From the sequence record DRR723986_7955: DNA of 64,000 nt. The stretch is one strand, 5' to 3'. Shown here piece after piece: positions 1 to 16,363 of this stretch (its first letter is position 1; the number at the start of each line of letters is the position of its first letter). The position numbers and the translations under genes were made by a program. The notes beneath the pieces are model-generated. The model saw only the letters and a list, made by a program, of their open reading frames with translations, searched no databases and was not told the DNA's origin.

Positions 1-3000
1 ATCTATTGGATCTTGTGGTCCATAAGTACCTGTAGCAGTAACCGTTGGAACTGTATCATCATCTAATACACAAGTTAAATCTACATCTTCTGGGCAAGAA
101 ATTACCGGAGGAGTTGTGTCATTACCAGCGTAGTTAAACTTAAGCATTGCTGCTTTGTTGTTACATAGATCTGATATAAACACATCGTAAGTTACAATCC
201 AGCTAGCATCTGTACCAGCTGGCTTTCTTACAATACTGATAATTAAATCCTCGTTAGCTGTACAGTTATCTTCAAACAAGGCTCTAATTACTTCGTCAGT
301 AATTAATTCTTGTCCTGGATCTGTATCTCTACAACCTTCTAATCCATTAATGTATGAATCTGGAGGTGTACCTACTAACATTGGAGGCATTGTATCTTCA
401 CCTGTGTAAGTTACTGTTAAGTTTTCAGCAAAGTTTCCACAAGAATCGCTAATAGAGAATCCGTATGTTACAGACCATCCTTCGCAATCATCACCTGTAG
501 TCACTGTCTCTAATGGCTCAACGATTACACTTTCATCACAGTTATCTTCATATAAATCCATGATGTCTTCTACCTTTGGTGCATCTGGTACAGAAGCTAA
601 GCACTGTAAACCATCTTCACCAACTGGTACCACAGCACCATCAACTAATGTTGGAGCCGATTGATCTCTACCGTTGTAGAATAACTTCACTGGTGCATCT
701 ACTTCATTACCACAGTCATCTGACACTATAATGGTGTACATGATTGACCAGTAACACTCATCGTCAGATCCTGGAAGTATTTTACTTGTAATATCTAAAT
801 GAATAGGTAAACTACAATTATCTACGTATAAGCTTGCAATATCAAGGCCTTCTACTATAGAAGCTGTTGCTTCTAAAGCATCACCAGGACAAAGATCCAT
901 ATTAGACTGACCCATTGGCAATACTGCGCCTGGTGCTAATGTTGGTGCTTCTATATCTTGTACTGTTATTGTCTGTACTTGATTTGCAGCTGCATTATCA
1001 CAATCATCTACTAATGACCATGTTCTGTTGATAATATAGTTACCTGCACAATCTCCTGGTGTAATTGTATCTGAATACGTCGCTTCTAAGTTCATAGAGC
1101 AGTTATCCATTTCATCAGATACGTCACCCGTTAATAGAAGATCTTCACTATTGTCTGTACAGTCAATAGTTAAATCTGCTGGTCTTGTAAATGTAGGTGC
1201 TATATTATCAGTTACAGTAATAATCTGTACCTGATCTGCTGCTGCATTATTACACTCGTCTACTAAAGACCATGTACGTGTAATTACTTTGCTACCTGTA
1301 CAAGGTCCGTCTGTAATAACATCGTTATATGTAGCTTGTAAATCAGCTGAACAGTTGTCTGCTTCATCTTCTACATCACCTGTTGCCTCTGGACTTGCGT
1401 CATAAGCACAATGAGCATCTGTAAAGATCTCCGTATTAGCTGGTGCTGTAAATGTTGGTGCTACAATATCTTGTACTGTAATCACTTGTGATGCTGACGT
1501 AGATAAACCACATGCATCAATAGCTGTCCATGTACGTGTTAACGTATAGTTGTTTGGACAATCACCATCAGTTCTTACTTCACCATTGTAAACGATTGTT
1601 ACGTCGCTACAATCATCTGCAGAAACGATACAAGCTATATCACCTTCGTTACCATTACCTGGATCTACTCCTGGAGGAACTACGATAGTTTGACCTGCAT
1701 TAGCAGCTCCTGGAGTTTCAGCTGTAGGACCAGACCATGTAAAGTCTGCATACGCTGAACCTGTACCTGTTAATTGTAATGATTCTCCTATTGCAGTACT
1801 AGACCCTTCAGAAAGACCTATATCAGTAGACATAACACCATCTGCTGGTCCACCAACACCTGTAAAGGCTCCTTCATAACTTAAGAACTGTACTAATACA
1901 TCTGAAGCATCAGCTAAGGCTATACCATCAGGTGCTCCATTTTGAATTCCAGCTCTTGGAATTACATAATAGTAAACACCACCGGCTTCAGTACCTGTAC
2001 CAAGAACAGTATCAAAGTAAGATGATCCGCTTGAGCTAGAACCGTTATATAAGTATAATTTGTAAGCTGAAGCATCAAAATTAGCTGCAACTTCAACAAA
2101 CTCACCTTGATCTCCACCATCATTATCATAATGGAACTCATTGATCCAAGCCGTTGGCTCAGGTCCATTTCCGTTACCACCATCTTGGTCGCATACTGTT
2201 GGTACCATATCACACTCTACAGTAACATCTGCAGGAACTGTGATTGTTGGTGCAATAGTATCTTCTATAGTAAACGTTGCAGTTGTTGAGCTAGTGTTAC
2301 CACACTCATCAGTAGCTGTAAATGTTACATCTACGGAACCTGTAGCGCCACAATCATCGCTTAATGAAGCGCAATCTGCTGGTCCCTGATCAGAACATAC
2401 TAATCGTATACCTGGTACAACAAAATTACTACCATTTCCATCTTGAGTTCCTTCTAACATTGTAAAAATACCTTGTGACCAAGTTTCATTTTCATTATTA
2501 TAGAAGAAATTCTCTAATGCAAGAGCATTATGTGTAAATTCTATATGATAGAAATTACCAGTAGTTAAGGTGATTGGTGTGAAATTGAAATCTACCCATT
2601 CTAAACCATTTGTAGAAACAGTTTGAGATCCACTTGCTAGTACAGTTTGTCCTGCAGTAACTTGACCTTCAAGCTGAGTTACTTGAGCTAATTCAAATGA
2701 TACTTCTGTATCTAGAACATTAAACCAAACACCAACACTTGAAACTTCGGTATCTTCAGTTACTTCAAATACTATTCCTCGACCACCGGAGTATAAATCG
2801 TTAAAATTAGTAGTAAATACAACACCGTTATCAGCAATATCATTTGGTGGTACAAATTCTGCACATATCGTTGATGGTTCACCATTACCTTGATGATCTG
2901 GACAAGGCTCTGCACTAAAGTTATTAGACCATGTTACAGGACCACAGTTATCTGTAGCTAATGCTCCACCATTGTTAGCTAACCATGCATTTAATGCATC

Positions 3001-6000
3001 AGTGTTACCTTCACCATCGCACTCTACAGTTTTATCCTCAGCTTCCATATCTATAGTTGGAGGTGTAGTATCTACAATAGTAATAGTCTGTATTAACGTA
3101 TATGAGTTATCACAGTCATCTACTAATGTCCATATACGTTTAATAGAGCTTTCGTTAGGGCAATCACCTGGGATTACTTCATCCGTAAATGTTGCTTCTA
3201 AACTTGGCGCACTACAAGCATCTGACTCATCAGTAACATCACCTGTTAACGTAAGATCTAATGGATCTTGGTCACACTCTATAGTAATGTCTGCTGGTAC
3301 AGAGAATATTGGGTCTGTAGTATCTTCAATTGTAAACGTTGCCGTTGTAGAAGATGCGTTACCACAATCATCAGTAGCTGTAAATGTTACTGTTACATCA
3401 CCTGTAGCACCACAAAGGTCACTAAATGTTATACAGTCAGCTTCTGCAGCCTCTATGACAATACTGCCTAATGCATCATAAGCAGCATCAAAAGAAGGAT
3501 CAACATTAGCATTACGACCTCTAACTCGGAAACCATACTGAATTTGACCCGCATCTACTTGCGTATTGTTATAAGCTATTGAAAATTCACCAGCAGATAA
3601 CGGTACTGAAATTTCTTCTAATAACGCAGAGAAATCAGCATTAAATATTCTGATAAATACAAATGCTTCATATTCAGAATCTAATGTATAACTAGAAACA
3701 TTTCCATTGAATGAGAATGATTGACCTATTAATGAGTTATCACCAATAAATGTACTAACATCCATATATTTATTACCTAATAAATTTCCAGTTTGCCAGA
3801 ACGGAGCTGGGTCACCAATTCTATTAGGCTTAAGTGTAACTGTATTTGCATTAGCATCAAGTAATACAACAGCATCAGCTACTCCCCATCCTGAAGAGAA
3901 TACACCTGCACCTGGGTTACCATTTGAATCCGTCTCAGACACAGTCATAAATGAAGCCCAAGGACCTGCAGCGTCTACAGTACGTGCATTTGGATTACAG
4001 TAGTTGTAGTTATTAGACCAAACCACATCGCTACACTCATCTGAAGCAGAAGCTCCTCCATTACTTGCCAACCATGCATTAAACTGGTCTAAGTTACCCG
4101 CACCATCACACTCAACAGTTTCGTTTTCTGCTGGTGCATCAATTGTTGGAGCTGTAATATCTCTAATTGTAAATGTAGCTGATGTAGAACTTGCGTTACC
4201 ACACTCATCTGTAGCTGTAAATGTTACAGTTGCAGAACCAGTTTCACCACATAAATCACTTAGTGATACGCATGGTGTAATTACATTTAATTGCACATCA
4301 TCAATACCAAATCCTGCAGGACCAGTAAAGTTTTCTGGGATATCTGCAACGAATTTAATTGTCAATGTATTTCCTTCATTACCTGTAAAACAAGGTAGCA
4401 TATCTACACTTCTTGCTTCCCAACCATCACTTTCTTCATCACCTGTAAAAGATTCTGTTAATAGTGTTGTAGTTGTATCCGTATTGGCATCATACTTTTC
4501 TACTATGAATGTTCTATTTAATCCTCCGAATGACATTTCATATGCTTCCATCCAAGACAAATTCGCCGCAGTTACACCTGCTGGTACAACCACTGACTGT
4601 TCCATTGTATAAACAGCTGGTCCATAACCATCAAATGCTGTATAAGACGCATAAGATCCTTCACTTGGAGAACCTACATCTAGACAAGTACTTCCACCAA
4701 TGGCAACCGTCCATGGTTGAGAACATTCCTCGCCACCTTCACCTTGACCTTCATTATCAGTTTCAGTAAAATTAAACGTCCAACCAGACTCATCACCATT
4801 TTCGAAACCACCGTTAACCATAAGGTTTTGAGTTTCTCCTTGATGGCCACAATAGTTATGAGACCATGTTACTTCACCACAGTTATCTGTAGCTTCTGCA
4901 CCACCGTTACTCGCTAACCATGCTGCTAAATCTGCTTGGTTACCATTACCGTCACAATCTACAACCATGTCCATTGCAGCTGGTGCAATTACTGGCGCAT
5001 GTGTATCTTGTACTTCGATAGTTTGTGTTTTTGTATCGGTATTATTACAGTTATCCGTAGCTGTCCATGTACGCTTAATTGTGTACGTTTGAGGACATGA
5101 GCCTGGGATAATCTCTTCTAATACTTCTGAGATCTCTACCTGTAAATCACAGTTATCTGTTGCAGATACTGGTCCTACTTCTGGCACTGAATCACACTCT
5201 ACTGTCACATCTGCAGGAATCGTTAATACAGGATCTGTTGTATCTTGTACTATGATTGTTTGCGTTGCAGTAACTGAGTTACCTGCACAATCTTCTGCTT
5301 TCCATGATCTGAAGATATAGTAGTTATCTGTACAGTCTCCTGCTTCGATTTTCTCATCGATAAATGTTACTTCTACATTGTCATCACAGTTATCTGTTGC
5401 CGTTGCTGCACCTTCATCTAATACTGGTACTGAATCACACTCTACAGTTGTGTTTGCCGGTATTGTTAGTACTGGGTCTGTATTATCCTCTACTGTAATA
5501 ACCTGTGTCTTCTGAACTTGGTTTCCTGAGCAATCTTCTGCTATCCAGATTCTGAACAACTTATACGTATCATCACAATCATCTCCATCGTCATCTACTA
5601 AGTTTTCACTTACAAATGTTACTGTTACATTTAAATCACAGTTATCTGTTGCTGTCGCAGTACCTACTGGTGGTACAGCATCACACTCTACTGTTTCATC
5701 TGCTGGTACAGTTAATACAGGATCGATATTATCTAATACTGTAATACGTTGCTCTTGTGGAGCTGCTGCGTTATCACAGTTATCTGTTAATGTCCATGTT
5801 CTTGTGATTACATACTCACCTGGGCAGTCACCTGGCTCTGTTACATCTGTGTACGCCGGTGATAGATCTGTAGAACAGTTATCAGCTACATCTGTTGGCA
5901 CACCTGTAATCTCTGTTGATGCATCATAAGAACAATCTTCTTTTGTGTAAATGGTAATATCTGCTGGTCTTACAAATGTAGGTGCAGTATTATCTTTTAC

Positions 6001-8040
6001 ATAGATATATTGTACTTGGTTAGGTGCAGAGTTTTCACATGCATCTTTTAAAGTCCAAGTTCTTTCGATTACTAACTCTCCTTCGCAATCACCAACGATA
6101 AGTTTATCTACTGGCTTAGCGTCTACTGGATTGTTACAATTATCCATTTCGTCTGTTACATCACCTGTAATATCTGGTGTTGCTACATACTCACAGTTCT
6201 CATCTGTGTATACTGTAAAATCTGCAGGCGCTGTAAAGGTTGGCGCTGTATCATCGATTACTACATATGAACATGTAAATGTCCCTGATATATTTCCGCA
6301 GTTGTCCTCTGCTACAAATGTTATTGTTAATTCATTGTTACATGAATCTTGAGTTGCTGTTTTGTCAGTAACTCTAATTGTTAATTCTGAATCTGCTGCA
6401 CAGTTGTCTGATACGCATCCACTTAAAGGATCAATTGATGCGCCTCCAACGGTCCATCCTGTATTAACATCGATCTCATCTCCAACATTTAATGAAATCA
6501 TTGCATCTGCTGGGCAATCGTACCCTTCTGATGTTCTAATCTCAAGTGCGTCAAGCTGACACCCTAAATCAAATACTGGTGCTGTGGTATCTATAACATT
6601 AACCGTTTGTGATGCCGAAATTGAACGACCACATTCATCTTCAAATGAATAAGAAACAACAAAAGAACCACAGTTTTCTGTGATTGCTGTATACTCTGGC
6701 TCTGCTTCACCATATATGGCGCAAGCTCCACCTTCAACACCATTTGAATAGCCTAGGTTAGCTGGAACGTAGTTCGCTAAGTCTTCACAACTTAAATCTA
6801 CTTCTGGCGCTAACTCATCAAATTCTGCTGCTGGTGCTGGTGATACAGTAATCGTCTGCATTTGCACATCTTTATTACCACAATCATCATAAGCGGTCCA
6901 TGTTCTTGTGATAAATCCACCTTCGCATGCAATACCAAGGTTTTCGTAGTTTACAAATACTGTAATCTCCAATTCTAAATCACAGTTATCTGTAGCCGTT
7001 GGGCCTTGATTTTTCTTTGGTAGTGGTGGTATCTCATCGATACAATCTACAGTAATATCTTCTGGCACACCTGCTAATACTGGTGGAGTTGTATCTCTAC
7101 CTGAATACTTAATTGTAAATGGTGGGTACTCATTACCACAATCATCTACAACTGAATATGTATACTCTGCCATCCACTTACAGTTATCGCCTTTTGAGAA
7201 CCCTGTTTTAGTTACATTAGTTTCTGTAATTACTGAACAGTTATCTTTAAATAATTCCGCTATTTCTGCTTCTGTTGGCCCTTGTTGCTTATCTAAAAAG
7301 CAAAAAGGAGAATTTAAATCCCCATCTGGTATTACTCTATTCTTTTTTAATTTTGGTGCTTCTATATCACCTCCTGAATACACTACTTTTACATCTTCTT
7401 CGTACTGATTTCCACAGTCATCTGAAATGTAATACGTGTAAGTGATTGTCCATGCACAATCTGTGCTAGTTGGATCTAACTCTGCTACCTTAGTAACATT
7501 AATTGGTTTTAACACCGTACAGTTGTCTGTAAACTGAGCTACAATCTCTGCTTCGTCTGGTCCATCTGGGATGGCATCTAAACAGAAATTAAGCCCTTCT
7601 ACATTAGCTGGTATTGTACCACTTAACTGTGGTGCTGACTGATCCGCTCCTCTAAAGATAGTCTTTAAAGTAATTGGGTCATTGTCACCACACAATATAG
7701 TGTAGGTATAAATTACCTGCCACTCACAGTCATCACCAGTGGTATCGGCTGATACTGTAAAGGTTAATTCTTCGCCATCGCATTCGGTTGCGTATAGCTG
7801 TTCTAAGTCTTCCTGAGTAAATTGAGGCTCAGGCGCATCGGCCAGACAGCGATCTAATATCACTGACCTTGCTGATGTTTGTCCGAACGTCGACCCTACA
7901 CTAAACAACATTAGCATGACAACCATTAAGGTCTTCACGCTACTTGCTTGTTTGGCAATAGAATCAATGTTACAACACGATAAATTCATGATAGATTGCC
8001 AAGATTTGACAAATCCAACATGTCGGGTAAAATTGTTCAT
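1..8040 (-). CDS. Giant secreted Cys-rich HYR-like repeat surface protein/adhesin (>=2680 aa, 3' end runs off the window), with four inserted passenger domains
   Basis: Manual translation: ATG at 8040 (MNNFTRHVGF...LMVVMLMLFSVGSTFG/Q; alternative ATG at 8046). The same frame is open at position 1 (..DTTPPVISCPEDVDLTCVLDDDTVPTVTATGTYGPQDPID). The ORF track lists no stop-terminated ORF in this frame, consistent with no internal stop. Recurrent motifs DxTAP-x-PADxTVECD...DNC...C...RTWTAxDxCGN...QxITVxD. A T9SS C-terminal signal is plausible but lies outside the window. Confidence 0.92.
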   Translation of the reverse strand, partial: MNNFTRHVGFVKSWQSIMNLSCCNIDSIAKQASSVKTLMVVMLMLFSVGSTFGQTSARSVILDRCLADAPEPQFTQEDLEQLYATECDGEELTFTVSADTTGDDCEWQVIYTYTILCGDNDPITLKTIFRGADQSAPQLSGTIPANVEGLNFCLDAIPDGPDEAEIVAQFTDNCTVLKPINVTKVAELDPTSTDCAWTITYTYYISDDCGNQYEEDVKVVYSGGDIEAPKLKKNRVIPDGDLNSPFCFLDKQQGPTEAEIAELFKDNCSVITETNVTKTGFSKGDNCKWMAEYTYSVVDDCGNEYPPFTIKYSGRDTTPPVLAGVPEDITVDCIDEIPPLPKKNQGPTATDNCDLELEITVFVNYENLGIACEGGFITRTWTAYDDCGNKDVQMQTITVSPAPAAEFDELAPEVDLSCEDLANYVPANLGYSNGVEGGACAIYGEAEPEYTAITENCGSFVVSYSFEDECGRSISASQTVNVIDTTAPVFDLGCQLDALEIRTSEGYDCPADAMISLNVGDEIDVNTGWTVGGASIDPLSGCVSDNCAADSELTIRVTDKTATQDSCNNELTITFVAEDNCGNISGTFTCSYVVIDDTAPTFTAPADFTVYTDENCEYVATPDITGDVTDEMDNCNNPVDAKPVDKLIVGDCEGELVIERTWTLKDACENSAPNQVQYIYVKDNTAPTFVRPADITIYTKEDCSYDASTEITGVPTDVADNCSTDLSPAYTDVTEPGDCPGEYVITRTWTLTDNCDNAAAPQEQRITVLDNIDPVLTVPADETVECDAVPPVGTATATDNCDLNVTVTFVSENLVDDDGDDCDDTYKLFRIWIAEDCSGNQVQKTQVITVEDNTDPVLTIPANTTVECDSVPVLDEGAATATDNCDDNVEVTFIDEKIEAGDCTDNYYIFRSWKAEDCAGNSVTATQTIIVQDTTDPVLTIPADVTVECDSVPEVGPVSATDNCDLQVEISEVLEEIIPGSCPQTYTIKRTWTATDNCNNTDTKTQTIEVQDTHAPVIAPAAMDMVVDCDGNGNQADLAAWLASNGGAEATDNCGEVTWSHNYCGHQGETQNLMVNGGFENGDESGWTFNFTETDNEGQGEGGEECSQPWTVAIGGSTCLDVGSPSEGSYASYTAFDGYGPAVYTMEQSVVVPAGVTAANLSWMEAYEMSFGGLNRTFIVEKYDANTDTTTTLLTESFTGDEESDGWEARSVDMLPCFTGNEGNTLTIKFVADIPENFTGPAGFGIDDVQLNVITPCVSLSDLCGETGSATVTFTATDECGNASSTSATFTIRDITAPTIDAPAENETVECDGAGNLDQFNAWLASNGGASASDECSDVVWSNNYNYCNPNARTVDAAGPWASFMTVSETDSNGNPGAGVFSSGWGVADAVVLLDANANTVTLKPNRIGDPAPFWQTGNLLGNKYMDVSTFIGDNSLIGQSFSFNGNVSSYTLDSEYEAFVFIRIFNADFSALLEEISVPLSAGEFSIAYNNTQVDAGQIQYGFRVRGRNANVDPSFDAAYDALGSIVIEAAEADCITFSDLCGATGDVTVTFTATDDCGNASSTTATFTIEDTTDPIFSVPADITIECDQDPLDLTLTGDVTDESDACSAPSLEATFTDEVIPGDCPNESSIKRIWTLVDDCDNSYTLIQTITIVDTTPPTIDMEAEDKTVECDGEGNTDALNAWLANNGGALATDNCGPVTWSNNFSAEPCPDHQGNGEPSTICAEFVPPNDIADNGVVFTTNFNDLYSGGRGIVFEVTEDTEVSSVGVWFNVLDTEVSFELAQVTQLEGQVTAGQTVLASGSQTVSTNGLEWVDFNFTPITLTTGNFYHIEFTHNALALENFFYNNENETWSQGIFTMLEGTQDGNGSNFVVPGIRLVCSDQGPADCASLSDDCGATGSVDVTFTATDECGNTSSTTATFTIEDTIAPTITVPADVTVECDMVPTVCDQDGGNGNGPEPTAWINEFHYDNDGGDQGEFVEVAANFDASAYKLYLYNGSSSSGSSYFDTVLGTGTEAGGVYYYVIPRAGIQNGAPDGIALADASDVLVQFLSYEGAFTGVGGPADGVMSTDIGLSEGSSTAIGESLQLTGTGSAYADFTWSGPTAETPGAANAGQTIVVPPGVDPGNGNEGDIACIVSADDCSDVTIVYNGEVRTDGDCPNNYTLTRTWTAIDACGLSTSASQVITVQDIVAPTFTAPANTEIFTDAHCAYDASPEATGDVEDEADNCSADLQATYNDVITDGPCTGSKVITRTWSLVDECNNAAADQVQIITVTDNIAPTFTRPADLTIDCTDNSEDLLLTGDVSDEMDNCSMNLEATYSDTITPGDCAGNYIINRTWSLVDDCDNAAANQVQTITVQDIEAPTLAPGAVLPMGQSNMDLCPGDALEATASIVEGLDIASLYVDNCSLPIHLDITSKILPGSDDECYWSIMYTIIVSDDCGNEVDAPVKLFYNGRDQSAPTLVDGAVVPVGEDGLQCLASVPDAPKVEDIMDLYEDNCDESVIVEPLETVTTGDDCEGWSVTYGFSISDSCGNFAENLTVTYTGEDTMPPMLVGTPPDSYINGLEGCRDTDPGQELITDEVIRALFEDNCTANEDLIISIVRKPAGTDASWIVTYDVFISDLCNNKAAMLKFNYAGNDTTPPVISCPEDVDLTCVLDDDTVPTVTATGTYGPQDPID

Positions 8041-8372
8041 AAACATAACATTTGGTTTTAATTAAAAATATTTAACACTTAATATATTAACAACTACATT
8101 TCTGCAGATAAAAATATTCGTAATAACAAAAATCACCTGAGGTAAAGCCTCAAATAATAATTGGTTTAATGAATAAACATCCAGTAAACTATAAAGTGCT
8201 AATAATCAATCGTTATGCTATTAAACAATTGTAAATGTGTAAGAAAAATTATCTTGAAAGTAATCAAGTCTCACGATAACTTATAATTCAAATGTAAGAG
8301 GAATGTGAATGTATTGCAAATAAAATTATCATTTTTATTAACATTTTACCCTTCATCATTAACAAGTTGTAT

Positions 8373-9884
8373 TTAGTCGAAGAGTATTTTTTCATCTATG
8401 CAAAAATCATCGATAAACTGCACTGAAGATTTTAATAAATGACTCATTACTAAGTCCTCAGAGACAAATTTTACATCTTTTCTGAATAATTTTAGAACCG
8501 TCTCAATTTCAGGTGAAGATTTTAATGGTAATCTAAAGTGTAAAGCCTGAGATGCATTTGTTAATTCAATAGCTAATATTTGTTTAGTATTGGTTACCAA
8601 TTCATAGGCTTGAGTGGCAGCATTGGCTCCCATGCTCACATGATCTTCTTGTCCATTTGATGAGACAATTGAGTCTACACTAGCTGGTGTTGCTAGTTGC
8701 TTATTTGCACTTACAATACTTGCAGCTGTATATTGAGGAATCATAAACCCAGAATTTAAACCTGGGTTATCAACTAGAAAAGATGGTAATCCTCTGTTAC
8801 CTGAAACGAGCTGAAACGTTCTTCGTTCCGAAATATTTCCTAACTCTGACATGGCAATTTTTAAAAAGTCTAACGCAAGTGCTAAAGGCTGGCCATGAAA
8901 ATTTCCTCCGGAAATAATTCGGTCTTCCTTAATAAAAATATTTGGATTGTCCGTTACCGAATTTATTTCTGTTGTAAAAACTTTCTTTACATGCTCTAAA
9001 GCATCCTTGGTTGCACCATGAACTTGAGGAACACATCTAAATGAATAAGGATCTTGTACGTGCTCCTTTTTTTGAGAAATAATTTCACTACCCTCTAGGA
9101 AGTTTCTAACGCGCTCTGCTGTTTTAATTTGCCCATTGTGTGGTCGCACAAAATGCACTAGCGGATTAAAAGGCTCTATCCTGCCGTCAAAGGCCTCTAA
9201 GGACATGGTAGAAATTAAATCGGCAAAATAGGATAACTTATAACACTCCAATAATAAATGTACACCATAAGCACTCATAAACTGTGTGCCATTTAAAAGC
9301 GCCAAGCCTTCCTTAGAATGAAGTGTAATTGGCTCCCATTTAAAATGTTTTATAACTTCACTTGCGGCAACAACCTTATCATTATAGTATACTTCGCCTT
9401 TACCTATTAAAGGTAAAGCTAAATGTGCTAATGGAGCTAAATCTCCTGATGCACCTAATGACCCTTTAGTATAGACAACAGGTAATACATCATTATTATA
9501 TAATTCTATAAGTCTTTCTACAATTAATATCTGCACTCCACTATGACCATAATTTAATGATTGTATTTTAAGGAGTAACATGAGTTTAATAATTGGCTTA
9601 GGCACCAAATCTCCTATACCACTTGCATGAGACATTACAAGATTTTCTTGAAGAACCGTTAAATTATGTTCGGAGATTTTTATGTTACATAGAGAACCGA
9701 ATCCTGTATTAATACCATAAACAGGATCTTTATGACTCATCAATTTTTGGTCTAAGTAAGCTCTACAATTTTTAATTTTGGTGCGAGCATCATCAGATAA
9801 TTTCAGTTTTAAATCATCATGAATGATTTCATGAATTTTTAATAAATCTAAAGCCTCTGAACTTATATTATGGTATTTACTCAT
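8373..9884 (-). CDS. hutH: Histidine ammonia-lyase
   Basis: MIO-forming GSLGASGDLAPLAH motif, VYGINTGFG, QDPYSFRCVPQVHGA, SNGQEDHVSMG. Confidence 0.93.
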   Translation of the reverse strand: MSKYHNISSEALDLLKIHEIIHDDLKLKLSDDARTKIKNCRAYLDQKLMSHKDPVYGINTGFGSLCNIKISEHNLTVLQENLVMSHASGIGDLVPKPIIKLMLLLKIQSLNYGHSGVQILIVERLIELYNNDVLPVVYTKGSLGASGDLAPLAHLALPLIGKGEVYYNDKVVAASEVIKHFKWEPITLHSKEGLALLNGTQFMSAYGVHLLLECYKLSYFADLISTMSLEAFDGRIEPFNPLVHFVRPHNGQIKTAERVRNFLEGSEIISQKKEHVQDPYSFRCVPQVHGATKDALEHVKKVFTTEINSVTDNPNIFIKEDRIISGGNFHGQPLALALDFLKIAMSELGNISERRTFQLVSGNRGLPSFLVDNPGLNSGFMIPQYTAASIVSANKQLATPASVDSIVSSNGQEDHVSMGANAATQAYELVTNTKQILAIELTNASQALHFRLPLKSSPEIETVLKLFRKDVKFVSEDLVMSHLLKSSVQFIDDFCIDEKILFD

Positions 9885-10011
9885 TCCTCAAATTTTAAGT
9901 ACTTCCAAAATTGAGAATAATTTTCGATTTGGCAACATATTGTTAATAATTCATTCATTGCTATCATTTCTTTAATAATGTTTACATTTGAGCATGAACA
10001 AATTACCATTT

Positions 10012-11052
10012 ATGAAAAAAATACTTATGCTTTGTTTAGCTATTTCTATTATAGGATGCAAACAAGAAGAACCTAAAGATTATGTAACACTTTCTGGTAA
10101 AATTGAAAATCCGCATGAAAGTAAAACCTTAAAAATTTTAAAAGGTAGAGAACTTAAAAGAGAAATTCCATTAAATGACGATGGCACCTTCAAAGATACA
10201 TTGAAGATCGAAGCTGGTGATTATACCATACAACATGGTCAAGAATATGGAGAAATCTATTTAGAAAATAACAATGAGACAACATTAAATACAGATCATG
10301 AAGATTTTGATACAAAGATGATATTTGGTGGTGATGCTTCTGACATTAATAACTTCTCAATTCAGTCGTATTTAATTTCTAATGATCATTTTACTGAAGA
10401 TTTAATTTCGGGTGGCTCACAAAAAGATTTAGATAATGCTGTTACAAATTACCGTAATGCATACAAAGAATTAAAAACAAAATTTTCGACTGTAGATTCT
10501 ACACATGTAGCCAAAATAGATAATAATATTGAAGCTACAGTTAGATCATTAACTCAATATATGGCTTCAAAAATTGCCATGAGAGAACAATTTCCTGCAG
10601 GTAAACCCTCTCCAACGTTTAGTGGTTACGAAAACTATGCTGGCGGAAATATGTCTCTTGAAGATCTAAAAGGAAAATACGTTTATATTGACGTTTGGGC
10701 GACTTGGTGTGGACCTTGTAAAAGAGAAATTCCTTCGCTTAAAAAAGTTGAAAAACAATTTGAAGGGAAAAATATTCAAATCGTTAGTATTTCTGTAGAT
10801 GAAGGACGTGGATATAAAGGTGATGCTGCTGCGGCTTATGAAGGGTGGAAAAAAATGATTGCTGAAAAAGAATTAGGTGGAATTCAATTATTAGCTGATA
10901 ACGGATTTAGGTCTCAGTTTATACAAGATTATAAAATTAATGGAATACCAAGATTTATTTTAATTGATCCAGATGGGAATATTGTGAATGCAGATGCACC
11001 AAGACCATCAAATTCTAAATTAGTTGAATTATTTAATTCTTTAGATATTTAA
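10012..11052 (+). CDS. TlpA-family thioredoxin-like disulfide reductase lipoprotein
   Basis: MKK..IIGC lipobox (ATG at 10012, downstream of TACATTTG at 9983-9990); C-terminal YIDVWATWCGPC and GIPRFILID motifs. Confidence 0.88.
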   Translation: MKKILMLCLAISIIGCKQEEPKDYVTLSGKIENPHESKTLKILKGRELKREIPLNDDGTFKDTLKIEAGDYTIQHGQEYGEIYLENNNETTLNTDHEDFDTKMIFGGDASDINNFSIQSYLISNDHFTEDLISGGSQKDLDNAVTNYRNAYKELKTKFSTVDSTHVAKIDNNIEATVRSLTQYMASKIAMREQFPAGKPSPTFSGYENYAGGNMSLEDLKGKYVYIDVWATWCGPCKREIPSLKKVEKQFEGKNIQIVSISVDEGRGYKGDAAAAYEGWKKMIAEKELGGIQLLADNGFRSQFIQDYKINGIPRFILIDPDGNIVNADAPRPSNSKLVELFNSLDI

Positions 11053-11073
11053 AAACTATTAATTGTATAAAAC

Positions 11074-11104
11074 AAAAAGAGCCTTCAATTAAGAAGGCTT
11101 TTTT
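11074..11104. terminator. Bidirectional intrinsic terminator
   Basis: AAAAAG-AGCCTTC-AATTAA-GAAGGCT-TTTTT between convergent tlpA-like and nnr genes. Confidence 0.75.
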
Positions 11105-12650
11105 ATTTATTTTGTTCAGATTCATTCTGAGACTCTTCTGGCTGTTTAAACAAGTCAATGTAGGCTTCACCTATTGTTTCTATAATATGGCTTGCAATTA
11201 AACTTTGATATCCAAAATCTTCAACAGCAATGTCACCAGATTTTCCATGTAAGTAAACACCAAAAAGCGTTGCAGCCAAAGGTTCGTATTTCTGGGCCAA
11301 CAAACCTGTAATGATTCCTGTTAAAACATCTCCACTGCCAGCAGTTGCCATACCTGGATTTCCTGTAGTATTTATATATTGTTTATCCTTATATACTGTA
11401 ATTGTATGTGCACCTTTTATCACAACTATTACATTATGTTTAGATGAAAAAGCTTTTGCTTTTTTAAGTTTATCAAAATCATCCTTCCACTTTCCAATAA
11501 GTCGTTCAAGTTCTTTAGGATGTGGTGTTAAAATAGATTGCTCTGGTAATAACTTTAAGAGTGTTTTTTTCTTAGCTAAAATATTAATAGCATCTGCATC
11601 GATGACTAATGGTGCTTTATTCTTTTTTAAAAATGCTTCAAATGCTTTAATAGATTCATCCGCCTGTCCTAATCCTATTCCAACACCTACAACAGTTGGC
11701 TCTATACTATAACTAATATTGCTTATCTGTTTTTCATTTACATCTGTAATTACCATAACTTCTGGCACAGCTGCTTGTAAGCTATGATAACCACATTCTG
11801 GTATAAACGCTGTAACTAAACCTGCGCCGGCACTTAAGGTAGCTCTTGAGGTTAAATTAACAGCACCTATTTTCCCATGACTTCCACCAATTATAAGAGC
11901 ATGACCAAAATCACCTTTATGTGAAAATTTATCCCTTGGCTTGTACAAAGGAAGTACCTCGAATTTTGAAATTAACTCTACCCTTGTTTCAGTTTGCATT
12001 AAATAATCACGGTCTATTCCTATATCTAAAACTTCCCATTGAACTGTAAACTTGGCTGTTTCAGGTAAGAAGAAAACTAGTTTAGGTGATTGAAAACTCA
12101 GAGTATAATTGGCATGAACAACAAATTCGTCATTTTCAACTGCTTTGTCTGTGTATAAACCCGAAGGAATATCAATAGACAAAGTAAATGCTTTAGAAGA
12201 TTTAAACAACTGGAATAGTTGCTGAACCCATTCAATTGGTAGTCTATTTAAACCTATTCCAAAAATGGCATCTACAATAATGTCATCTGAATGTATCTCT
12301 GGAAACTCATTTTGACAAGTCAACATCTTTGGCCAATCTTTGGTGACATTTTTTATTCTGTCATAATTGACTAGAAAGTCTTTAGAGCGTTTATCACTAC
12401 AATTAACAATATATGTGATAACATTATAACCATGCGTAATTAAATGCCTTGCTATTACAAGGCCATCACCACCATTATTGCCAATACCACAAAACACATG
12501 AATTGGTACTTGTGCTCCTTGCATACGCATATGCATCCAATTAAAAATTTGGGTACCTGCACGCTCCATTAAATCCGTAGATGAAATATTTTGACGCTCT
12601 GTGGTTAATTTATCACCTTGATATATCTGTTCTTTTGAGAATACTTTCAT
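11103..12650 (-). CDS. nnr: Bifunctional NAD(P)H-hydrate epimerase/dehydratase (YjeF_N + carbohydrate kinase-like domain)
   Basis: LMERAG, CGIGNNGGDG, DAIFGIG, DIPSG; SHKGDFGH, VIDADA, TPHPKE, GNPGMATAGSGDVLTG. Confidence 0.92.
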   Translation of the reverse strand: MKVFSKEQIYQGDKLTTERQNISSTDLMERAGTQIFNWMHMRMQGAQVPIHVFCGIGNNGGDGLVIARHLITHGYNVITYIVNCSDKRSKDFLVNYDRIKNVTKDWPKMLTCQNEFPEIHSDDIIVDAIFGIGLNRLPIEWVQQLFQLFKSSKAFTLSIDIPSGLYTDKAVENDEFVVHANYTLSFQSPKLVFFLPETAKFTVQWEVLDIGIDRDYLMQTETRVELISKFEVLPLYKPRDKFSHKGDFGHALIIGGSHGKIGAVNLTSRATLSAGAGLVTAFIPECGYHSLQAAVPEVMVITDVNEKQISNISYSIEPTVVGVGIGLGQADESIKAFEAFLKKNKAPLVIDADAINILAKKKTLLKLLPEQSILTPHPKELERLIGKWKDDFDKLKKAKAFSSKHNVIVVIKGAHTITVYKDKQYINTTGNPGMATAGSGDVLTGIITGLLAQKYEPLAATLFGVYLHGKSGDIAVEDFGYQSLIASHIIETIGEAYIDLFKQPEESQNESEQNK

Positions 12651-12772
12651 TTAATTCTATTAATGCTATTTCAATTAAAAGCTAAAAAGCTAAGATTTTA
12701 ATAATAAAAAGACCGCTTATTCAACAAATCATTAAAAAACAGTGTTTTGTTTTTTTATAACCGTAAAAATAA

Positions 12773-12780
12773 TACATTTG
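12773..12780 (+). promoter_or_regulatory. Bacteroidota primary-sigma -7 element (TAnnTTTG) for the thr leader/operon
   Basis: TACATTTG ending 8 nt before the leader-peptide ATG. Confidence 0.55.
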
Positions 12781-12787
12781 GTAAGTA

Positions 12788-12892
12788 ATGAAGAAAAAAA
12801 TAAACATTTCAATTTGTCCTATGACAGATACAAAAAGTATGTCTATTTCTATGTTTTATATTTCTACAACTATTACCCTTTGGGGTAATTAA
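12788..12892 (+). CDS. Putative thr operon leader (attenuator) peptide, 34 aa
   Basis: MKKKINISICPMTDTKSMSISMFYISTTITLWGN*: 5 Thr, 6 Ile, 4 Met, 4 Lys. Its end overlaps the hairpin ATTACCC-TTTG-GGGTAAT (12872-12889) and it stops 65 nt before the thrA ATG. Confidence 0.6.
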   Translation: MKKKINISICPMTDTKSMSISMFYISTTITLWGN

Positions 12893-12957
12893 TAATAGTC
12901 TTTCCGCCCATTGATTTGTCTTTTTTGACATTATTTTTCTTAATAAATCTTAAAAAT

Positions 12958-15432
12958 ATGAAGGTTCTTAAATTTGGTGGTACATCTGTAGGTACTGCTG
13001 AAAATATAAACAAAGTTATTGCCATTTTAGAACAACAATCTAGCGATTCTAACATTGCTGTTGTGGTTTCTGCTCTAGGTGGTATAACGGATCAATTGCT
13101 TGAAGCTGCAAATTTCGCATGTGATAAAAATAAAGCGTATTTAGAAAAATACAATTCTATTTGGTCTAGGCATAATCAGGTCATCGAAGGATTATTTAGA
13201 ACTGATGATATAAATTCTAAATTAAAACAACAACATGATGATTTGCATAATCTCATATCCTCTAAATTAGAGGAACTAAAGAGTCTTTTAAATGGTATTT
13301 ATCTAATCAATGAGTTATCTCCTAAAACCAGAGATAAATTATTAAGTTTTGGTGAAACTCTTTCTTCAACAATCATCTATAATACATTGGTTTCAAGATA
13401 TATTGATGCAACGCTAAAAAATTCGCAAGAGCTAATAGTGACTGATAATAGTTTTAATAACGCTGTGGTGGATTTTGACGCAACAAACTCTAAAATTGAA
13501 GCCTTTTTTGATAAAAATTCTTCAAAAATAGTATTACTACCTGGGTTTGTTTCTAAATCTGCAGATGGCGAAATCACAACATTAGGAAGAGGTGGCTCTG
13601 ATTACACTGCAGCTATAATTGCCGCTGCCTTAGATGCTAATGAATTACAAATCTGGACAGATGTAAGTGGTATGTTTACAACAAATCCAAAACTTGTAAA
13701 ACAAGCTTCACCAATTAAAGAATTATCCTATCAAGAAGCCGTAGAACTATCTCATTTTGGGGCAAAAGTGCTTTACCCACCAACGGTAATGCCTGTTCTT
13801 AAAAAGAACATTCCAATAGTGATAAAAAACACAATGAAACCTGATGCTGATGGTACTTTAATTTCTGAAAATTTAGATGGTAATGGTATTTCACCTGTAA
13901 AGGGAATTAGTAATATTGATAATATTGCCTTACTGACTCTACAAGGCAATGGTATGGTTGGTGTTCCTGGTTTTAGTAAACGTTTATTTGAGACACTAGC
14001 TCTTCATAAAATCAATATCATTTTAATTACGCAATCCTCGTCTGAGCACTCCATTTGCTTCGGAATTTCAGATAAGGATGCAACTCATGCCAAACAGTTA
14101 ATTGATGTAGAATTTGAATACGAAATAGCACAGCAAAAACTAGATCCTATTATCGTTGAAACGGAATTATCTATTATTGCTGTTGTTGGTGACAAAATGA
14201 AAAGTCATCAAGGTATAAGTGGAAAAATGTTTAGTACATTAGGTAAAAACAACGTAAATATTAGAGCCATTGCTCAAGGAGCTTCAGAACGAAATATTTC
14301 TGCGGTTATTCATAAAAATGATGTTAAGAAAGCACTCAATAGTTTACACGAGAGGTTTTTTGAAATTAAAACCAAACAAATAAACTTATTTGTTACAGGT
14401 GTTGGTAATGTTGGTGAACGTTTAATTGAACAAATAAAAAAACAAAAGGCATACGTTAAAGAACATTTTAAAATAAACCTTAGGGTTGTTGGTTTATCAA
14501 ATTCCAGAACTATGGCCATTGATGACGATGGCATAAATCTTAAAGATTGGAAGACCAAATTACAAGAAGGAGAAAATGCATCTTTATCTGGCTTTTTTAA
14601 GTATGCCAAAGACTTAAATTTAAGAAATTCAGTCTTTGTAGATATAACAGCAAATGAAGCTGTTTCTAATATGTATAGAGATTACCTAAAAGAAAGTATC
14701 TCAGTTATTGCATGCAATAAAATTGCTTGCTCAGGAAATATTGAGTATTACAATGAGCTTAAACAATTATCTAGAAAATACAATGCCTCTTTTTTATTTG
14801 AAACTAATGTTGGTGCAGGATTACCTGTAATAGACACCTTGAGTCATCTTATTACCTCTGGTGATAAAGTAAATTCTATACAAGCCGTTTTATCAGGAAG
14901 TCTTAATTTTATTTTCAATAATTTTAACTCTGACACAACCTTTCATGATGTTGTAAAACAAGCACAAAATGAAGGTTATACTGAGCCAGATCCACGTATA
15001 GATTTAAGCGGCATAGACGTAGCACGAAAAGTATTAATTTTAGCCAGAGAAAGTGGTCACCAAATTGAATTATCTGATTTAGAAAGCGACAATTTCTTAA
15101 CAGATAATGCGATGACTGCAGACTCGGTTGAAGACTTTTATAAAACACTTAAAGAAGATCAAGCTCATTATCAGAGTTTATACTCTTCTGCAAAAGAAAA
15201 AAATTGCCAATTAAAATTTGTCGCAGAATTTAATGAGGGTAAAGCTAAGGTAGGTCTTAAGGAAATACCCCAAGGGCATCCATTTTTTAATTTAGAGGGC
15301 AAAGACAATATTGTTATGTTTTATACAGAGAGATACCCAGAACAACCCATGATTATAAAAGGCGCTGGCGCTGGTGCAGATGTAACAGCTTCAGGACTTT
15401 TTGCAGATATTATTAGAATTGCGAACAATTAA
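12958..15432 (+). CDS. thrA: Bifunctional aspartokinase/homoserine dehydrogenase I
   Basis: MKVLKFGGTSVG start (ATG 12958), LGRGGSDYTA, ACT domains, GVGNVG, FETNVGAGLP, GYTEPDPRIDLSG. Confidence 0.96.
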   Translation: MKVLKFGGTSVGTAENINKVIAILEQQSSDSNIAVVVSALGGITDQLLEAANFACDKNKAYLEKYNSIWSRHNQVIEGLFRTDDINSKLKQQHDDLHNLISSKLEELKSLLNGIYLINELSPKTRDKLLSFGETLSSTIIYNTLVSRYIDATLKNSQELIVTDNSFNNAVVDFDATNSKIEAFFDKNSSKIVLLPGFVSKSADGEITTLGRGGSDYTAAIIAAALDANELQIWTDVSGMFTTNPKLVKQASPIKELSYQEAVELSHFGAKVLYPPTVMPVLKKNIPIVIKNTMKPDADGTLISENLDGNGISPVKGISNIDNIALLTLQGNGMVGVPGFSKRLFETLALHKINIILITQSSSEHSICFGISDKDATHAKQLIDVEFEYEIAQQKLDPIIVETELSIIAVVGDKMKSHQGISGKMFSTLGKNNVNIRAIAQGASERNISAVIHKNDVKKALNSLHERFFEIKTKQINLFVTGVGNVGERLIEQIKKQKAYVKEHFKINLRVVGLSNSRTMAIDDDGINLKDWKTKLQEGENASLSGFFKYAKDLNLRNSVFVDITANEAVSNMYRDYLKESISVIACNKIACSGNIEYYNELKQLSRKYNASFLFETNVGAGLPVIDTLSHLITSGDKVNSIQAVLSGSLNFIFNNFNSDTTFHDVVKQAQNEGYTEPDPRIDLSGIDVARKVLILARESGHQIELSDLESDNFLTDNAMTADSVEDFYKTLKEDQAHYQSLYSSAKEKNCQLKFVAEFNEGKAKVGLKEIPQGHPFFNLEGKDNIVMFYTERYPEQPMIIKGAGAGADVTASGLFADIIRIANN

Positions 15433-15436
15433 ACCT

Positions 15437-16363
15437 ATGAGTCAGGAATTAAAAATATTTTCTCCAGCGACAGTAGCTAACGTAGCCTGTGGCTTTGATG
15501 TACTAGGATTTTGTCTTGATACTATTGGTGATGAAATGGTGATACGAAAAACAAAAACCAAAGGCATTAAGATAACTAAAATTGAAGGTTACGATTTACC
15601 ATATGAAACTGTGCAAAATGTAGCAGGAGTATCGGCGTTAGCCATGTATAATCATTTAAAACCAGACTGTGGATTTGAAATTGAGATCTATAAGAAAATA
15701 AAACCAGGTAGTGGTATAGGTAGCAGTTCTGCAAGTGCATCTGGAAGTGTTTTTGCCATGAATGAGCTTTTAGGTAAACCGCTAAATAAAATAGAGCTTA
15801 CTAAATTTGCAATGAAAGGTGAATATGTAGCAAGTAAAGCTGAGCATGCAGACAATATTGCACCAGGAATTTTTGGTGGATTTACATTGGTAAAATCATC
15901 AAACCCATTAAAGGTTCTAGAGCTACCGACACCTTTCGATTTATATGCGACCTTAATTCATCCACAAATTGAAATTAAAACAGCTGAATCTAGAGCTATT
16001 CTTCCTAAAGAAGTTCCTTTAAAAAATGCTATTTCACAATGGGCTAATGTAGGCAGTTTGGTACATGCATTACATACTTCAGATTATAACTTAATAAAAG
16101 AATCATTGCATGATGTGGTAATAGAACCACATCGTAAACAACTCATACCTTATTTTGAAAATATAAAATCCGTGGCTTTAAATGCTGGCGCTTTAGGCTG
16201 CGCTATTTCCGGATCTGGTCCTTCAATATTTACATTATGTAAGGGTGAAGAAACCGCTTTAAAAATTCAAAAAGCAATGGACAAAGTTTATGCTAAAACA
16301 GATATTGAATTTCAAACTTATGTCTCTAAAATTAATACCGAAGGCATAAAAATACTATCATGA
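15437..16363 (+). CDS. thrB: Homoserine kinase
   Basis: PATVANVACGFDVLG, PGSGIGSSSAS GHMP motif, HADN, ISGSGPS; ATG at 15437. Confidence 0.95.
   Translation: MSQELKIFSPATVANVACGFDVLGFCLDTIGDEMVIRKTKTKGIKITKIEGYDLPYETVQNVAGVSALAMYNHLKPDCGFEIEIYKKIKPGSGIGSSSASASGSVFAMNELLGKPLNKIELTKFAMKGEYVASKAEHADNIAPGIFGGFTLVKSSNPLKVLELPTPFDLYATLIHPQIEIKTAESRAILPKEVPLKNAISQWANVGSLVHALHTSDYNLIKESLHDVVIEPHRKQLIPYFENIKSVALNAGALGCAISGSGPSIFTLCKGEETALKIQKAMDKVYAKTDIEFQTYVSKINTEGIKILS

Follow-up and report, generated by a model that had tools for sequence, protein, structure and literature searches.

The giant gene and its split repeats

The window analysed here, a 64,000-nucleotide stretch of DNA from sequence record DRR723986_7955, begins with a giant open reading frame on its minus strand, whose product is a stalk of four-cysteine repeats, four of them split by an inserted domain that is bracketed by an extra pair of cysteines (Cys). 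The original prediction, made from the letters alone, held that four unrelated domains interrupt single repeats of this protein, that the bracketing Cys staple the two ends of each insert, and that the whole forms a swappable scaffold for sideways display. Its anatomy stands: in the translation the eight flanking Cys lie at C1066 (window 4851), C1259 (4270), C1350 (3999), C1538 (3433), C1715 (2904), C1892 (2371), C1952 (2193) and C2139 (1630), the flanking motifs it quoted are present, and the uninserted class-B copy that it named is found inside window 4993-5241 without the extra Cys. The repeats fall into two classes, A and B, and the parts of the gene are as follows.

1..8046, minus strand: giant open reading frame, 2682 amino acids (aa) in the window; it runs past the window start, so its 3' end is cut
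4993..5241, minus strand: uninserted class-B reference copy (VECDSVPEVGPVSATDNCD), with G-P at the positions of the inserted copy's two clamp Cys
4852..5010, minus strand: host class-A repeat 1, N-terminal half (residues 1013-1065, ending in WSHNY)
4270..4851, minus strand: insert 1 with its bracketing Cys C1066...C1259, CBM61-like
4147..4269, minus strand: host class-A repeat 1, C-terminal half (VSLSDLCG...TFTIRD)
4000..4161, minus strand: host class-A repeat 2, N-terminal half
3433..3999, minus strand: insert 2 with its bracketing Cys C1350...C1538, a beta-sandwich of carbohydrate-binding module (CBM) type in the model
3298..3432, minus strand: host class-A repeat 2, C-terminal half
3058..3321, minus strand: ordinary uninserted class-B repeat between cassette units 2 and 3
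2905..3075, minus strand: host class-A repeat 3, N-terminal half
2371..2904, minus strand: insert 3 with outer pair C1715...C1892 and inner pair C1728...C1884
2248..2370, minus strand: host class-A repeat 3, C-terminal half
2194..2259, minus strand: host class-B repeat, N-terminal part (through C1945 and the MVPTV stretch)
1630..2193, minus strand: insert 4 with its bracketing Cys C1952...C2139, LTD-like
1459..1629, minus strand: host class-B repeat, C-terminal part (IVSADDCS...VITVQD), HYR_4C model positions 26-73

The host repeats are members of the HYR-like four-cysteine family. PF23237 ('HYR-like domain with 4 cysteines') is the sole Pfam match of the window protein, at 178.9 bits against a cut-off of 27 and over five stretches, and the consensuses of both classes, built from 250 class-A and 300 class-B repeats, hold four Cys per repeat. 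In predicted structures the host parts appear Ig-like, their alignments with PKD, Big and cadherin-like domains scoring Z 6-7.3. Residues 1020-2200, used as a query, gave 1124 relatives, and the best 120 of these 1124, the set examined, have the same HYR-like repeats. In databases the PF23237 giants of Flavobacteriaceae and Saprospiraceae go by names such as 'gliding motility-associated C-terminal domain' and 'T9SS type A sorting domain' (T9SS, type IX secretion system), which describe the repeat and the sorting domain only.

Both ends of the protein are best read against two orthologues, P0004 and P0035. At the N terminus, a hydrophobic signal-like stretch, MVVMLMLFSVGSTFGQ, occupies residues 41-56 of the window frame; the first ATG of the frame (window 7900-8046, minus strand) stands about 40 codons upstream of it and P0035 begins at the position of residue 37, and the true start is probably near residue 37-41. 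At the other end, the window frame stops (window 1-120, minus strand; ...TATGTYGPQDPID) where P0004 enters the first of four P-domains. In P0004 (3588 aa), residues 2495-3588 beyond this point comprise four P-domains of proprotein-convertase type, nested in canonical HYR repeats, and then a tail resembling the T9SS type A C-terminal domain (CTD). Precomputed Pfam annotation places PF18962 in both P0004 and P0035, and this family is described as the type A T9SS signal in the consulted part of PMC10202324. Judged by its sequence and by the sorting domain of its orthologues, the gene product is likely a giant T9SS surface protein of a marine flavobacterium, with a stalk of HYR-like four-cysteine beta-sandwiches.

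Inserts nested within single repeats

The inserts are nested within single repeats and do not stand in line between them. P0004 matches the window protein at 87.6% identity over residues 1-1070 and 96.9% over residues 1260-2681, and at the place of insert 1 it has only WSHNY-C-x12-C-DGVSLSDLCG. P0035 (Winogradskyella sp. according to its source) has C-x11-C at that place and at the place of insert 3 a plain repeat, WSNNYMNLSDDCG, without extra Cys, while retaining diverged homologues of inserts 2 and 4 together with their Cys. Hidden Markov models (HMMs) of the repeats, built from uninserted copies, split exactly across the inserts, and the two flanks match complementary halves.

Predicted structures agree. 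AlphaFold2 models, made from alignments of the window and locus references only, cover two units, residues 1930-2199 with insert 4 (model 1; alignment A4, 80 rows) and residues 1296-1583 with insert 2 (model 2; alignment A6, 27 rows). The former has a mean predicted local distance difference test score (pLDDT) of 86.8 and a predicted template modelling score (pTM) of 0.70, with host blocks at 85-94 and values below 50 only at residues 26-31 and 202-209, where Gly/Asn linkers adjoin clamp Cys 23 and 210 on the inner side; the latter reaches a mean pLDDT of 89.0 and a pTM of 0.73. When both were searched with VIA-align against 48,161 PDB chains, many of the resulting rows aligned 70-89 residues, spanning model positions 1..~265 or 1..~281, with one Ig-, PKD- or cadherin-like domain of about 90-110 residues. 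Examples are 4u7k_A against model 1 (Z 6.1, root-mean-square deviation (rmsd) 2.5, 73 aligned, model range 1..264), 4m00_A against model 2 (Z 7.3, rmsd 2.9, 77 aligned, 22% identity, range 1..281) and cadherin-23 EC9 against model 2 (Z 7.1, 88 aligned). Because these rows reach across the insert to a single domain, the two host segments form one beta-sandwich in the models, and the host repeat is predicted to fold across insert 2 and across insert 4 as had been proposed. A Foldseek search of model 1 against the PDB gave weak, generic two-Ig matches only (best E 9.9e-4, TM 0.20).

A contrary view would make the segments of about 190 aa in-line domains between complete repeats, with the interruption an artefact of reading motifs by eye. 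It can draw on an HMM screen across the relatives, in which most of the non-HYR gaps of at least 40 aa lack complementary half-repeats (152, against 54 nested). For the window protein this view is already contradicted on three sides, by the orthologues, in which the flanks are fused into one normal repeat where inserts 1 and 3 are lacking, by the complementary half-repeat HMM hits, and by both models, which put the flanks into one beta-sandwich; it is accordingly extremely improbable.

A cysteine pair at the base of the inserts

The extra Cys follow the extended loop with few exceptions, well beyond what chance would give. In the class-A survey, hits of N-half and C-half HMMs were paired in 121 proteins, where 1123 N-halves divided into 1108 paired and 15 unpaired. 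The loop from the Trp to the third Cys measures 8-13 aa in 1074 class-A repeats, none of which has a Cys in it (0/1074). Another 34 loops are longer; four of these (P0094, P0115 and two in P0059) were dropped on inspection, their own C-half being visible at the loop start, and the remaining 30 comprise 24 of at least 100 aa, five 'empty sockets' of 23-29 aa and one Cys-less loop of 19 aa (P0062). Cys stand at both ends in 28 of the 30 and at one end only in none. The empty sockets (in P0004, P0035, P0023, P0055 and P0060) hold exactly two Cys, as Cys-x11-19-Cys, and no domain, while the 24 large inserts form nine BLAST clusters, eight of which (23 inserts) are clamped. The positions are stereotyped: the first Cys falls between W+4 and W+9, the last precedes the third repeat Cys by 6-10 residues, and the most frequent arrangement, WS-x-x-C...C-x-LSD-x-C, puts the two at consensus positions 51 and 52, which are neighbours in the uninserted loop. 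Class B is similar, the two Cys standing in for the adjacent G-P of DSVPEV-GP-VSATDN; a pattern search found a Cys in the loop between the first and second repeat Cys (C1-C2) in 0/731 uninserted class-B repeats, and LTD inserts at that site are clamped in 6/6 cases. The stricter idea that Cys pair and insert always go together holds for class-A loops as a strong association (28/30 extended against 0/1074 normal) and fails as a rule, given the five empty sockets and the class-B inserts that lack a clamp.

The insert families point to the origin of the pair. In free-standing members of the insert 1 family a clamp Cys is present in 0/56 on the C side and in 4/56 on the N side, where the four lie within the signal-peptide region; in the insert 2 family it is present in 0/29 on the N side and on the C side only in the nested L081, of 29; and in the free-standing insert 3 family there is a Cys in 0/9 at all four positions. 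By these comparisons the pair belongs to the host socket and not to the inserted domain. Inserts 2 and 4 have no Cys besides the bracketing pair. Insert 1 has three more (C1108, C1121 and C1219), of which equivalents of C1108 and C1121 are kept in 53/56 homologues; C1219 (window 4390-4392, minus strand), the odd fifth Cys of this insert, has no counterpart among the 56. In insert 3 the inner pair C1728/C1884 sits right at the domain's first strand and its last one (IC-AEFVPPND ... GIRLV-C), and since it is absent from 9/9 free-standing homologues, this unit may be double-stapled.

A mutual disulfide is the simplest reading of the pair, given its both-or-neither occurrence, the adjacency of the two positions in the host loop, and the fact that inserts 2 and 4 offer no other partner; the extra Cys most likely form a staple. 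It is conceivable instead that they are not bonded to each other, being reduced, metal-binding, or paired with Cys of the insert or host, so that no staple exists. The crowded loops lend themselves to this explanation, with five Cys in that of insert 1, C1219 unique to that copy among them, and four in that of insert 3, as does low model confidence around some clamp Cys in both models. However, the five empty sockets, like inserts 2 and 4, contain just these two extra Cys; no uninserted repeat lacks the four canonical Cys, which presumably pair among themselves; and the remaining Cys are explained by two further pairs, the inner one of insert 3 and the conserved one of insert 1. Unbonded clamp Cys are therefore quite improbable.

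Identity of the inserted domains

All four inserts belong to autonomous, binding-type families of secreted or surface-protein domains, even though each, taken alone, gave nothing significant against Pfam or NCBIfam. Relatives of insert 1 number 537 at E<=0.001 among 1.84 billion representatives, and many are proteins of about 230 aa in which the domain stands between a signal peptide and an anchor of PEP-CTERM or IPTL-CTERM type. The family profile matches the CBM61 structure 2xom_A in the PDB at E 9.4e-6, a match covering only profile positions 20-105 of 232, and CBM_4_9 of Pfam is matched at E 0.08 by one homologue only. The 27 relatives of insert 2, of 232-309 aa, every one with a T9SS type A CTD, are stand-alone proteins in the form of signal peptide, domain and CTD. 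A genome search with the alignment of this family (A5) was dominated by matches to the T9SS CTD; with these set aside, the true domain is present in about 24 of 401 Flavobacteriaceae genomes, mostly as stand-alone cargo. In model 2 the insert (model residues 53-240) aligns with 5w6h_A at Z 8.6, with 2c4x_A at Z 8.3 and with the CBM16 structure 2zew_A at Z 8.0 over 127/146 residues, scores that stand close to the tool's background limit of about 8, and the ESM Atlas offered PCMD at 0.76 as a weak lead only.

Insert 3 has nine relatives of 200-279 aa and 40-53% identity, five with a Pfam match to PEP-CTERM; outside the giant, the family takes the form of PEP-CTERM proteins of about 207 aa. It falls in no Pfam family, its family profile (A7) gave 0 hits against the PDB, and DUF4082 and Lectin_like came from the ESM Atlas as weak leads only, the Atlas yielding unnamed clusters otherwise. 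Insert 4 is the most widespread, with more than 500 relatives across phyla, often N-terminal in extracellular nucleases of the ExeM/NucH type. Of 80 family members, 44 match Pfam LTD (PF00932) at E<=0.01, with 2.8e-8 as the best value, while the window insert itself has no LTD match at E<=1 and L042 reaches 28 bits against a gathering score of 34.3. No LTD chain stood among the top 50 VIA-align rows for model 1, the family profile (A4) gave 0 hits against the PDB, and phmmer searches of inserts 4 and 1 against the PDB gave nothing useful. Taken together, the probable identities are a CBM61-like domain (insert 1), a T9SS cargo domain of CBM fold (insert 2), a member of a PEP-CTERM-associated family (insert 3) and an LTD-like domain (insert 4), as far as homology and models can suggest. 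At the sequence level the inserts are unrelated, as originally claimed: the three class-A inserts lie in separate BLAST clusters, and hhalign gave a probability of 1.2% for the families of inserts 1 and 2. Those two both appear to be CBM-type beta-sandwiches despite this. With alignment A2, a profile search of 401 Bacteroidota genomes gave 0 matching genomes at E<=1e-8, and matches to A2 from three genomes (L085-L087) were rejected as a different domain in other proteins.

Filled, empty and unclamped sites

The sockets differ between close relatives. Among the orthologues P0004 is without insert 1 and P0035 without inserts 1 and 3, and the same variation is seen in metagenomes. Contigs of at least 85% likeness from five runs (X1-X5) were compared with window 3900-5200, a comparison that shows presence and not frequency and that was read for the covered parts. 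One X3 contig joins window 4269 to 4848, skipping 578 nucleotides and carrying 44 other letters, and its breakpoints coincide with the codons of the two clamp Cys; insert 1 is present in other contigs of this run (4349-4516, no differences, and 4673-4871). A single marine metagenome thus holds filled and empty alleles of socket 1. In X1, X2 and X5, contigs pass from host sequence into insert 1, and each has 9 extra letters where that insert's exit junction lies, by the Cys codon (window 4272-4275), a linker-length polymorphism. Given these differences, 'swappable display scaffold' is a fair description; recombination is the presumed route of cassette exchange.

Domains of the same families also sit in other hosts and at other sites. 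Members of the insert 2 family are found not only as free proteins but also as nested copies, one held by a clamp in a class-A loop (L081) and one without a clamp behind the second Cys of a class-B repeat (L082). In Winogradskyella-type proteins the LTD-like domain has its clamp between C1 and C2. Altogether the HMM screen found its 54 nested inserts among about 3396 repeat hits and at several sites. In L082 and L106, a Flavobacteriaceae bacterium locus, successive class-B-like repeats of one giant protein each have a different domain after the second Cys, a second style of cassette array that does without the clamp. Another recurrent insert, of about 110-128 aa, lies in class-B repeats between their second and third Cys, in P0043, P0054, P0106, P0117, P0120, P0033, P0052, P0060, L081 and L082; it starts at about YY-x-x-TPW and often ends near CCG.

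These observations bear on a further explanation, which accepts the nesting as real and denies that it is purpose-built for display. The insertions would build up neutrally in fast-evolving repeat proteins, the Cys pair would only offset the local destabilisation of this one tight loop or protect it from proteases, and the role might be capture of glycans or extracellular DNA, or cell-envelope structure, in place of adhesion. That insertions occur at several sites, with and without Cys, fits this; moreover, the CBM-like and nuclease-type LTD modules suit nutrient or polymer capture equally with adhesion. On the other hand, eight unrelated families share a stereotyped socket and Cys offsets, both Cys are kept in empty sockets, the inserted families are elsewhere all extracellular surface-anchored modules, and in the RTX adhesins considered below, a solved and studied analogy, split domains project ligand-binding domains. 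Neutral insertion is on balance unlikely, with somewhat more to be said for it than for a dismissible alternative.

A probable stapled socket and its implications

The interpretation that probably accounts best for these data is that HYR-like repeats of a T9SS stalk are split at Cys-bracketed, reusable sockets, from which autonomous domains are displayed sideways. The protein would be exported by the Sec pathway and would fold and be oxidised in the periplasm before the T9SS step. In each split repeat the chain leaves the host at one loop, forms a complete domain of about 180 aa and returns to complete the host repeat, so that the module buds sideways from the stalk. At the points of exit and re-entry the Cys pair would bond, replacing the interrupted peptide bond and holding the host halves together, while flexible linkers of Gly, Asn and Pro would tether the modules, the LTD-like one especially. 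The type A CTD would then direct the folded protein through the T9SS to the surface. Across proteins and strains the bracketed loop acts as a reusable socket, occupied by unrelated domains or empty, and the displayed modules may bind ligands in adhesion or capture. A more ambitious proposal, that the socket in the HYR-like repeats of Bacteroidota T9SS giants is standardised and evolvable, with its two apex residues replaced by a disulfide-forming Cys pair and domains plugged in, removed to leave empty sockets, and exchanged between strains and sockets to diversify what populations of marine flavobacteria can bind, is tentative, with chances somewhat below even.

Several points weigh against the stapled-socket interpretation. 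In the models, pLDDT falls to 45-72 around some clamp Cys (blocks 21-30 and 201-210 of model 1, blocks 51-60 and 241-250 of model 2), and the VIA-align Z scores, at 6-8.6, count as middling in the tool's own terms and derive from predicted structures. The counts include orthologues and paralogues and hence are not phylogenetically independent, and the removal of the four long 'loops' as false pairings rested on the author's inspection. Flanking Cys are absent from two extended class-A loops, in P0107 (288 aa) and P0062 (19 aa). The Cys number in the loop of insert 1 is odd, with C1219 unmatched in the 56 homologues, and pairing there may be different. Finally, members of the insert 1 family lie without a clamp inside canonical HYR domains of P0125, P0126, P0142 and P0175, and the LTD-like domain after the second Cys is unclamped in 13/14 Saprospiraceae-type loci. 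Because many nested inserts after the second repeat Cys lack the clamp, a clamp is not required for a split repeat and is site-specific. The original prediction is in sum partly supported: it was largely right, with the amendments that the clamp is tied to particular sites, that sockets can be empty, and that a bond between the two Cys is the likely and not the observed state.

If the Cys pair is a real staple, it provides a simple natural rule for placing a whole folded domain in a loop of a beta-sandwich with the host fold kept, a rule that would be useful for engineering display scaffolds. If the interpretation is true, the principle that a split domain marks a ligand-binding module extends from RTX adhesins to the very abundant HYR-like T9SS giants of marine Bacteroidota, where it would offer a direct way of picking out functional modules. 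The coexistence of filled and empty alleles in one metagenome suggests that strains differ in their binding range, and such differences would bear on how niches on particles and algae are partitioned.

Genomic surroundings

The giant frame (window 1-8046) has a G+C content of 0.38-0.41, against 0.30-0.35 in the neighbouring housekeeping genes (8001-16000). Its neighbours encode a histidine/aromatic ammonia-lyase, a YjeF-type enzyme, an aspartokinase-homoserine dehydrogenase and a homoserine-kinase-like GHMP kinase. Window 9988-11052 (plus strand), some 2 kb upstream of the Cys-rich giant gene, encodes a 354-aa thioredoxin-fold protein with AhpC/TSA, Redoxin and Thioredoxin_8 matches at residues 204-337 and an N-terminal extension of about 200 aa. 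It could be a periplasmic thiol-disulfide oxidoreductase, or its position could be due to chance.

Comparison with known systems

Within its own family, the window protein shares its host repeats with the PF23237 giants, and the nested cassettes and the extra Cys pair are the features added here. The placement of a whole domain in the loop of another, with its termini close together, is familiar from the integrin alpha-I domain, which sits in a beta-propeller. That case is a single, fixed insertion in a eukaryotic receptor, whereas the socket described here is repeated, polymorphic and Cys-bracketed, and belongs to a bacterial stalk.

The closest likeness is to the 'split domains' of RTX adhesins, which are secreted by the type I secretion system (T1SS). 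According to the portions consulted of two papers, these occur in MpIBP, in FrhA of Vibrio cholerae and in AhLap of Aeromonas hydrophila; an Ig-like repeat of the stalk is split by a whole ligand-binding domain, for example a CBM or one of von Willebrand factor A type (vWFA), and the inserted domain has its N and C termini together, so that it projects off the axis of the adhesin (PMC12077191, PMC10865825). In both systems, as far as those portions describe the RTX case, an Ig-like repeat is interrupted by a complete budding domain, with several such units in a row in one giant surface protein. By the same portions RTX adhesins are T1SS-secreted and stiffened by Ca2+; the window protein combines a four-Cys HYR-like host with the status of a likely T9SS cargo. 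A term search of the texts as available found 'disulfide' in neither PMC12077191 nor PMC10865825, and 'cysteine' was absent from PMC12077191. Nor did the full-text literature, subscription journals and supplements lying outside the search, yield a description of nested cassettes in HYR-like, T9SS or Bacteroidota proteins, or of a Cys-bracketed version; the claim of novelty keeps its force for Bacteroidota and for the bracketed form and loses it for the sideways split-domain principle, which is known in RTX adhesins. Proteins of the window type differ from RTX adhesins in a dedicated Cys pair at the insertion loop, in a socket shared by at least eight unrelated insert families, and in the coexistence of empty and filled alleles. 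RTX nonapeptide repeats and a T1SS signal, the marks of an RTX adhesin, are not seen: Pfam finds only HYR_4C in the window protein, and its orthologues end in a T9SS CTD. The giant of this window works like a split-domain adhesin, yet it is not a member of the RTX family.

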